Virus record (IMG/VR): IMGVR_UViG_3300008448_000033
Coordinates: 1-64,000 of that record
Length of the DNA: 64,000 nucleotides
Strand: one strand, 5' to 3'
Source of the DNA: a virus
The notes below the pieces were generated by a model. The model had not been told where the DNA came from. It saw nothing but the letters and a program-made list of their open reading frames with translations, and did not search any database. Shown piece after piece: positions 8,684-9,278 of the stretch. Numbering within the stretch: the stretch's first letter is position 1; each line of letters starts with the position of its first letter. The position numbers and the translations under genes are program-made.

Positions 8684-8983
8684 TTATTTTTTAGTCAATG
8701 ATTTGTTAAATTTCTTGATCCAAGTTTCTGCCGCTTGCTCTGCGAATTTCTTTGCTTTTGCCAAGTCAACATGATTTCTTGGATAGAGAGTGCCAATATA
8801 CTCCCTTGAAACCTTAATGTCAACCGCTGTTAGCCAAAGAGGATCATCGCTATAGCCAACATCATACACTTGCCAAACCTGCAATTCAACCATCCCAAGT
8901 TTAGCACAATGTCCACCTCTACCGTCTTTCTTCCACTTCCAAGCAAGTTTCTTCATGTTACCCTCAAAATAATTACAATGCAA
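8684..8983 (-). CDS. hypothetical protein
   Basis: Likely start at MKKLAW after a GAGGG SD. Confidence 0.5.
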   Translation of the reverse strand: MHCNYFEGNMKKLAWKWKKDGRGGHCAKLGMVELQVWQVYDVGYSDDPLWLTAVDIKVSREYIGTLYPRNHVDLAKAKKFAEQAAETWIKKFNKSLTKK

Positions 8984-9278
8984 GGCGTGTTTTTACACCA
9001 AAGAGAACCGGCTCATGCTTCGCTTTTTATCGGTTTGCCACTATTCTGGTTCACATGAACGGGCTAGTGTCCTATCCCCCAACCACAGCGACCTACGCTA
9101 GATTGCAGTTACCCTATCAGCTTTTTCTCGCATAGTCAAGTGAATAAAAGAGTTTCTAAACTACGCTTTCGGGAGCGTTAGCATTCCGCCTCTTAACGAG
9201 ATTTCTAGCTGCACTTGTGGATTTTGTCTCACTCTTTAAAAGATGGCTACCTTTAAGCCTACTTCCCTCGCATTGTAA
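8973..9278 (-). ncRNA. ~306-nt structured RNA containing a split 23S rRNA H43/H44 (L11-binding, GTPase-associated centre)-like element
   Basis: 13-bp terminal helix UUACAAUGCGAGG/CCUUGCAUUGUAA; GGAAGUAGGCUUAAAGGUAGCCAUCUUUUAAAGAG matches the H43 pattern; GUGUAAAAACAC is an H44-like hairpin near the 3' end; lies directly downstream of tRNA-Leu. Confidence 0.7.

Follow-up and report, generated by a model that had tools for sequence, protein, structure and literature searches.

A phage RNA resembling the GTPase-associated centre of 23S ribosomal RNA, encoded behind transfer RNA genes

Why would a phage carry, beside its transfer RNA (tRNA) genes, an RNA that resembles a highly conserved site of the ribosome? 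The question is raised by a locus in the IMG/VR virus record IMGVR_UViG_3300008448_000033, of which we analysed positions 1 to 64,000 (the window). An original prediction, made from the letters of this DNA, had proposed a noncoding RNA that rebuilds the GTPase-associated centre (GAC) of 23S ribosomal RNA (rRNA) around an insertion. We found the proposed sequence on the minus strand at 9278..8973, together with the 13-base-pair end helix ascribed to it: the ends of this 306-nucleotide (nt) element form 13 pairs, one of them G-U, between UUACAAUGCGAGG and CCUUGCAUUGUAA. The locus is accordingly predicted to encode a discrete, self-closed, structured RNA.

An RNA whose ends resemble H43 and H44

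The ends of the element rebuild helices H43 and H44 and the top of H42 of 23S rRNA, in rRNA register. In Escherichia coli 23S numbering, the 5′ part comprises G1055, G1056, H43 (1057-1081) and the junction UUAAAGAGU (1082-1090), and the 3′ part, G1091 to C1104, contains H44 with the tail that follows it. The closing helix, made by an H42-like 5′ strand at 9266..9278 (equivalent to 23S 1043-1055) and a 3′ strand at 8973..8985 (equivalent to 1104-1116), continues H42 in the same register, from pairs 1055:1104 and 1054:1105 onwards. Inside it lies the H43-like hairpin (9240..9264), which includes the loop UUAAAGGU, U1060, A1067 and an A-U pair at 1058:1080, followed by the junction (9231..9239), identical to the bacterial 23S consensus. 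Directly after GAGU, which ends at position 1090, comes the 5′ strand of an insert-base helix, GAGAC (9226..9230), pairing with GUUCUC (9003..9008, one bulged U) across an insert domain of 217 nt (9009..9225). A UUUG linker (8999..9002), specific to the family described below and absent from real 23S, precedes G1091 and the H44-like hairpin, GUGUAAAAAC plus ACG (8986..8998, 23S 1091-1103). This hairpin contains A1095, the U1092-A1099 pair, which stands with U1072 in one of two covarying forms of a base triple, and, immediately after GUGUAAAAAC, A1101. Between U1090 and G1091 there are 232 nt with the linker and 228 nt without it; the insertion is therefore real, and longer than the approximately 220 nt first proposed.

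Against the Rfam bacterial large-subunit rRNA (LSU) model, the 5′ half alone gave a local match covering the H43-like hairpin (9266..9217 to model positions 1096-1145, 21.6 bits, E 1.7e-4). This score lies below the gathering score of 50 bits, no other rRNA was found in the window, and in a larger E-value search of Rfam the fragment dropped below detection at E 1. No Rfam 15 family reached its gathering score in the window, and a search of 8800-9500 at E values up to 10 returned no GOLLD, ROOL, L10 leader or other ribosomal protein (r-protein) leader, and no intron. Likewise, Rfam searches in both gathering and E-value modes found no family in 17 family loci and 5 isolate/family loci. The element has no full-length match to any Rfam 15 family, and membership of GOLLD or ROOL, which the original prediction had left undecided, is excluded.

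Four known identities were considered for the element and rejected. A 23S gene or fragment would show 23S continuity, which is missing here; H43 and H44 are interrupted, and only model positions 1096-1145 are matched. For GOLLD and ROOL, the window gave no match at gathering score, and the surroundings of the element gave none even at E up to 10. An L10 or other r-protein leader is contradicted by the lack of a leader match, by a downstream open reading frame (ORF) without a Pfam family and by the lack of Ribosomal_L11 in the record. A group I intron in the place of the insert fails on the lack of any intron family at E up to 10 and on family inserts as short as 40 nt.

A phage family with a covarying fold

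BLAST searches against GenBank phages located the H43-like stretch in unannotated gaps beside the tRNA genes of four unrelated isolates, Aeromonas phage 4_4572, Pseudomonas phage pf16, Acinetobacter phage ME3 and Ralstonia phage RSP15. A 17-base junction pattern matched at least 119 IMG/VR stretches, about 100 of them with both halves, and from among the matches listed, none of which was a real 23S gene, we obtained 78 distinct cores. This pattern fixed positions 1073-1090, so that the invariance of the junction there is by construction, and the regular expression used also fixed parts of H44. The insert sets the distance between the halves, anywhere from 40 to 364 nt, and always falls at the same site; it is a variable module that does not define the family. 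The UUU of the linker occurs in 75-77 of the 78 cores and its G in 68, and A1101, where real 23S has U, is a family signature. A1067, the contact of factors, the tRNA elbow and thiostrepton in the ribosome, is an A in 59 of the 78 phage mimics versus all 10 distinct real 23S cores compared. Judged from these sequences, the ribosomal constraint on A1067 is absent from the mimics and the determinants of the fold are kept.

We then built a covariance model, R1, from a seed of 20 other phage copies with short inserts, leaving the window out. R1 matched the window element end to end (model positions 1-162, 8973..9278, minus strand) with 78.1 bits and an E value of 1.2e-19, the sole significant match in the 64 kb and in the whole 85.6-kb record; real 23S GAC scores 44-48 bits with the same model. 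Full members were also identified with R1 in two jumbo phages, XacN1 and GAP32, and in three contigs of metagenome-assembled genomes (MAGs).

The MAFFT seed alignment had given the 3′ closing strand two registers, which the covariance model inherited, and the sequences were therefore split into two sets. Base pairs were counted on two register-consistent R1 alignments, A5 and A6 (27 and 32 distinct sequences), over 26 pairs, 15 of them in the R1 model; members with inserts longer than about 250 nt, which R1 matched by halves, were excluded. Standard pairs filled 87.7% of the cells in A5 and 86.3% in A6, as against 67% and 66% in shuffles, and the covariation scores were 0.62 and 0.59, as against 0.22 and 0.20. 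None of 500 shuffles attained the observed score or percentage paired in either alignment, a statistic that kinship inflates, and slid registers left 34-56% paired. Changes on both sides were found in all 13 closing-helix columns, in all four insert-base columns (87-94% paired), at 1058:1080 (G-C/A-U) and at 1092:1099 (C-G/U-A). Closing-helix columns 1047-1055:1104-1112 were 83-100% paired, used all four Watson-Crick pair types and all covaried, in a helix that has no conserved sequence across the family. The check on phage homologs that the original prediction had pointed to thus gave strong covariation in both the closing and the insert-base helices.

Further analysis extended the covariation to the tertiary fold. 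In an anchored, ungapped count over the 78 cores, position 1072 tracked the 1092:1099 pair (C with C-G in 49, U with U-A in 26, 3 exceptions); in crystal structures of the uL11-binding domain, these positions form a base triple. U1060, which contacts A1088 in the tertiary fold, was invariant in all 78 cores and lies outside the collecting pattern. Because neither the triple nor U1060 is contained in the collecting pattern or in the pairs of the model, both are evidence for the fold, and because covariation involves the helices as well as a tertiary base triple, the fold, and not the sequence alone, is under selection. Together, these results make the fold and the family membership of the window RNA near certain. 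They bear out the idea that H43-like and H44-like parts at opposite ends are joined by pairing, for which the LSU match, the end-to-end R1 match and covariation all speak, and that the RNA is a free-standing mimic of the 23S GAC, as its rRNA register and rRNA-type tertiary covariation suggest. One predicted helix did not survive as such. AAAGAG and CUCUUU are complementary in this member; as a family helix they fail, AAAGAGU being the invariant rRNA junction 1084-1090, and they are replaced by a covarying helix that starts just after AAAGAGU and stops just before UUUG.

Insert, relatives and genomic setting

Relatives of the window insert were found in one lineage only (L024, L307 and L309) and in a contig variant from run X5 that is about 82% identical over the 3′ half; the consensus fold of the insert was drawn from these, and its covariation support comes from two lineages and one contig variant. 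The family-supported helix at its base, here GAGAC (9230-9226) with GUUCUC (9008-9003), reads GCGG/CCGC in L024 in place of GAGA/UCUC. Within the insert, three helices have support: CCACA/UGUGG, GCUAGA/UCUAGC and GUUCAUG/CAUGAGC. The last, which had been predicted, gains support from three double changes in the X5 variant (UGUGUG/CACAUA) and from different, again complementary strands in L024. A second predicted hairpin, CUAG..GU/AC..CUAG, is kept in neither relative and gives way to the long-range helix GCUAGA (9209-9204) with UCUAGC (9102-9097), whose partners stand 100 nt apart and show a compensatory change from C-G to A-U in L024. Two unpaired blocks, 9084-9069 and 9049-9018, are strongly conserved. 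Two scans of viral sequence for 14-15-base motifs of the insert yielded 182 more loci, none of them with the GAC motif, and a metagenome scan for the insert motif found the L024 lineage only.

By BLAST, the window insert had no match in seven complete 23S genes, and the same search over all family inserts matched L064 only, at the sarcin-ricin loop, plus one likely chance match. Sarcin-ricin-type hairpins occur in the inserts of 4 of the 78 phage members (L013, L031, L034 and L064). For the hairpin AGUAC-GNRA-GGA there was no match with up to 3 mismatches in the window insert and none with up to 2 in the whole window. A split sarcin-ricin motif formed by the conserved GGGGGAUAGGAC and AAGUGCAG blocks was considered and discarded, as the letters it needs are not kept in the X5 variant or in L024. 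A separate recurrent motif, (G)CACCCCG-NNAN-YGGUAAGG(C), was observed in the inserts of L001, L002, L005, L008, L089, L100 and L110, which belong to otherwise different phages, Aeromonas 4_4572 and Pseudomonas pf16 among them.

An uninterrupted GAC copy is found in the tRNA arrays of filamentous cyanobacteria (Nostoc, Microcoleus, Calothrix, Anabaena, Phormidium and others). It belongs to a unit of about 250 nt in which an exact sarcin-ricin hairpin, UACUUU-AGUACGAGAGGA-AAAGUA, lies upstream of the GAC copy at a spacing of 72-78 nt, mostly 75. We found the unit on the tRNA strand at 59 loci, 47 of them with at least three same-strand tRNAs within 1.5 kb; examples are L324 2366-2545 (minus strand), L338 4192-4377 (plus strand) and L311 5433-5563 (plus strand), to which 56 further loci of the genome_contigs set are added. 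A1067 is an A in 25 of 38 cyanobacterial copies, and the unit has no Rfam family. R1 cannot separate these copies from real 23S GAC (41-53 versus 44-48 bits). The tRNA arrays of Anabaena (L-arrays) are induced by ribosome-targeting antibiotics and aid survival, according to the accessible portion of PMC8421152, in which a sarcin-ricin and GAC unit is not mentioned.

Real 23S genes came up in two further searches. A scan of bacterial genomes fails as a means of excluding real rRNA, since the 23S of Patescibacteria carries GUGUAACAAC; insert-type mimics accounted for 3 of the 120 matches listed, all of them on MAG contigs. The U1072/U1092-A1099 form of the triple was observed in the 23S of Patescibacteria (candidate phyla radiation, CPR), in L310, L345 and about 56 other loci of the genome_contigs set. 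A match in Paenibacillus phage Pd_22F (L532 894-967, near the record end) was rejected as a mimic, being a genuine 23S stretch in which the GAC is followed by normal 23S and which is probably host DNA.

The record belongs to a large, uncultured freshwater phage; its 85.6 kb are 47% complete by CheckV estimate and encode a DnaE-type polymerase, RNR, GroEL and DnaB. It is remote from isolates, with polymerase identity of at most about 31%, and the DNA sequencing runs that contain the stretch are labelled fungus, freshwater or aquatic metagenomes. On one strand, in order, lie a promoter-like site, tRNA-Leu(UAA), tRNA-Leu(CAA), the RNA and a 90-amino-acid ORF. The first is a sigma-70-like match before both tRNAs (9476..9505, minus strand; TTGAAA/18 nt/TAGAAT with TG), obtained by a consensus scan, which is not functional evidence. 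Both tRNA-Leu(UAA) (9380..9466, minus strand) and tRNA-Leu(CAA) (9285..9372, minus strand), which has an encoded CCA and ends 6 nt upstream of the RNA, were called by ARAGORN and Rfam. The ORF (8956-8684, minus strand) has no Pfam match and starts 17 nt downstream of the RNA; the closing helix ends 8 nt before its GAGGG Shine-Dalgarno sequence, and UUAUUUU follows the helix. Six same-strand tRNAs lie within 2 kb of the element. In the family as a whole, 43 of 78 loci have a same-strand tRNA within 500 nt, versus 1 of 182 control viral loci, and 21 of 78 have one within 20 nt; hardly any opposite-strand tRNAs lie nearby.

A contig from run X6 joins 8962 to 9283, and 320 nt holding the whole RNA are replaced there by 3 nt. 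At this junction, the end of tRNA-Leu(CAA) meets the ribosome-binding site of the downstream ORF, and the flanks differ from the window by about 3% (2 in 63 nt, 4 in 126 nt). Since a sister strain is without exactly this element, the RNA is a discrete accessory cassette. In an all-against-all BLAST of the ORFs within 4 kb of the 78 loci, the only recurrent neighbours were HNH and GIY-YIG homing endonucleases, and a homing endonuclease gene lies 1.6 kb upstream of the window element. A Ribosomal_L11 search found uL11 in 0 of 48 mimic-bearing phage records; a GTP_EFTU protein was present in 1 of 50, and this record has neither a Ribosomal_L11 protein nor a RelA/SpoT homologue. As the RNA is accompanied by no phage-encoded uL11 or translational GTPase and by no conserved neighbour other than homing endonucleases, its partner, if any, would be a host molecule.

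Other features were observed in the vicinity and in relatives. Between 8500 and 12500, there are 28 sigma-70-like promoter matches versus 8.4 expected, nearly all on the minus strand and spread over the tRNAs and small ORFs found there; the same region contains an HNH endonuclease ORF (10804-11160) and a 90-nt tRNA-Ile(UAU) (11975-12064). The XacN1 mimic begins 11 nt after an annotated 2′-5′ RNA ligase gene (L531 228-1133), a gene of RNA-repair type. In RSP15 (L004 1985-2038), a tRNA domain like that of transfer-messenger RNA (tmRNA) lies about 190 nt after the GAC mimic, with an Rfam tmRNA score of 20.6 bits, below the gathering score.

Possible roles and known systems

What might such an RNA do? 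The best explanation, which we hold tentatively and with slightly less than even confidence, is that a GAC-fold RNA imitates the uL11 site off the ribosome and has a protective or counter-defence role. The RNA would be co-transcribed with the two tRNA-Leu genes and freed by tRNA-processing enzymes; of the tRNA association first proposed, the same-strand position 6 nt behind two tRNA-Leu genes and a promoter-like site is observed, and co-transcription is an expectation from it. Its ends would adopt the compact tertiary structure of the uL11-binding domain, with the 228-nt insert projecting from the bulge side of H44. The GAC fold is recognised by uL11, and the mimic, probably loaded with host uL11, may rival ribosomes as a target for anything that docks at the GAC or attacks it. 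Its purpose would preferably be to protect translation under attack or stress, as counter-defence alongside the tRNAs. This role is ranked first because of the tRNA-array context and because relatives pair the GAC with a sarcin-ricin hairpin. A specific uL10 site is disfavoured, since the closing helix lacks the conserved H42 sequence, and the relaxation of A1067 and the lack of phage uL11 and GTPase are indirect hints that may narrow the candidate partners among uL11, uL10-bL12, GTPases and RelA.

Several points weigh against this explanation. The element is dispensable in the sister strain, the window member is without a sarcin-ricin motif, and the sequencing runs listed for the stretch include no RNA runs. 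The variation of A1067 in the mimics implies that the contact most used by factors and thiostrepton escapes ribosomal constraint. Moreover, simple titration would be quantitatively hard, because ribosomes are far more abundant than a decoy could plausibly be and hold uL11 stably, and we know of no toxin or other attacker of H43/H44. For the sarcin-ricin loop there is one: a Rhs toxin of Photorhabdus modifies it, as cited in 10.1101/2024.02.24.581848.

By analogy, the GAC mimic, together with the sarcin-ricin hairpin of its relatives, could be the rRNA counterpart of counter-defence tRNAs, shielding the factor-docking site; we regard this as doubtful. Spelled out, and with the same doubt, the RNA would be a component of mobile tRNA arrays, in phages and in cyanobacteria, that intercepts a novel class of defence toxins or natural antibiotics recognising the factor-docking site.

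Alternatively, the RNA, with or without uL11, might bind EF-G, another translational GTPase or RelA and thereby retune translation or blunt the stringent response, which we consider unlikely. The GAC and the sarcin-ricin loop constitute the GTPase docking site, and some members, like the cyanobacterial unit, have a copy of each. Work by Munishkin and Wool in 1997 is said to have found that EF-G binds isolated oligonucleotides of both. RelA activation requires uL11. However, A1067 is replaced in about one quarter of the mimics and kept in all real 23S cores compared, the window copy has no sarcin-ricin motif, and trapped elongation factors would harm the phage too; the lack of a RelA/SpoT homologue in the record also speaks against it and says little.

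It is still less likely that the GAC fold, perhaps stabilised by uL11, is a nuclease-resistant chassis for a variable insert that does the work and differs between phages. The 40-364-nt range of inserts at one fixed site would suit such a scaffold, as would the existence of insert classes with conserved motifs of their own (the sarcin-ricin hairpins, the CACCCCG..GGUAAGG block and the conserved loops of the window). Yet the full GAC is kept with hairpin inserts of 40-45 nt and in the insert-free cyanobacterial copies, and because it is kept with a minimal insert or none, the GAC is the constant, selected part.

We think it improbable that the element is a selfish or neutral cassette of rRNA origin that homing endonucleases have spread among phage tRNA regions and that does nothing in trans. 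The sister strain without exactly this element fits that account, and so do the HNH and GIY-YIG genes that are the only recurrent neighbours, one of them close by; dozens of compensatory changes and a tertiary triple kept across very diverse phages show instead that the fold of the RNA has been under long-term purifying selection. More improbable again is an element acting in cis on the 90-amino-acid ORF as a leader, processing signal or terminator. The distance of the closing helix from the Shine-Dalgarno sequence and the UUAUUUU beyond it would agree with this, but no downstream gene is conserved in the family, a tRNA follows many members, the sister strain has the same ORF context without the element, and the ORF matches nothing in Pfam. 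Finally, real 23S rRNA, a 23S fragment or an assembly chimera, suggested by the 50-nt local LSU match, is refuted by the lack of other 23S in the window, by the element's own closing helix, UUUG and A1101, by recurrence in more than 100 viral contigs and isolate phage genomes, and by the presence of the element in independent runs. To judge from the UUUG linker, A1101 and the one fixed insert site, all absent from real 23S, the family is no captured piece of rRNA.

Should the folding and binding implied by the sequences of these RNAs be borne out, a free-standing copy of a highly conserved ribosome site would be present in phages and mobile tRNA arrays. One would then ask which molecule recognises the stalk base away from the ribosome; uL11, a GTPase, RelA, a toxin and a thiopeptide-like compound are candidates. 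The family could expose novel defence systems that target the factor-binding site. It would also supply a natural RNA scaffold, compact and tolerant of inserts, for which a protein ligand and a drug ligand are known. Direct experiments are possible in culturable carriers, namely Pseudomonas phage pf16, Cronobacter phage GAP32, Xanthomonas phage XacN1, Acinetobacter phage ME3, Ralstonia phage RSP15 and Aeromonas phage 4_4572.

To our knowledge, no described RNA class matches a free-standing GAC replica. In the retrieved portions of the literature searched in full text, no phage- or array-borne copy of the 23S GAC domain is described. A 2023 catalogue lists 10,006 viral structured-RNA candidates, and the family may be among them without a name; the accessible parts of it report no overlap with rRNA predictions. 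The RNA class is described neither in Rfam 15 nor in the literature searched; the principle of rRNA mimicry has a precedent in r-protein leaders.

Compared with the bacterial 23S GAC (E. coli 1051-1108, which binds uL11 and thiostrepton), the window element has the same helix register and the same junction AUCUUUUAAAGAGU, and likewise has U1060, G1071, A1095 and A1098; it shares the U/U-A form of the 1072/(1092:1099) triple with the 23S GAC of Patescibacteria. Unlike the 23S GAC, it is free-standing with a generic closing helix, has a 228-nt insert and the UUUG linker between 1090 and 1091, and has A1101 where 23S has U, as well as G1103. The L10 leader (RF00557) and similar autoregulatory r-protein leaders share the principle of an extraribosomal copy of a protein-binding site of rRNA. 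These leaders, however, are partial mimics that act in cis upstream of a bacterial r-protein gene, whereas the window RNA is a full-domain copy that lies by itself among phage tRNAs, away from any r-protein gene. GOLLD and ROOL are likewise large structured RNAs often found near phage tRNAs, but they lack rRNA likeness, and neither Rfam model matches the window element.

Phage-made copies of host RNAs or antitoxin RNAs supply a further comparison. The phage tRNA that neutralises PARIS occupies the same genomic niche and follows the same logic of phage-made host RNA copies, as far as the consulted sections of PMC11464382 describe it, and pseudo-ToxI, a phage-made copy of an antitoxin RNA, follows it too in those of PMC3475682. 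As presented there, both have a known target; for the GAC mimic, no attacker of H43/H44 is known, and a copied rRNA domain is no simple substitute for the one in the ribosome. The cyanobacterial array RNA differs from the phage family in having no insert, in a U1101 like that of rRNA, in its sarcin-ricin hairpin 75 nt upstream and in being cellular, not phage-borne. It shares with the phage family a GAC in rRNA register, a relaxed A1067 and the same-strand setting of a tRNA array.

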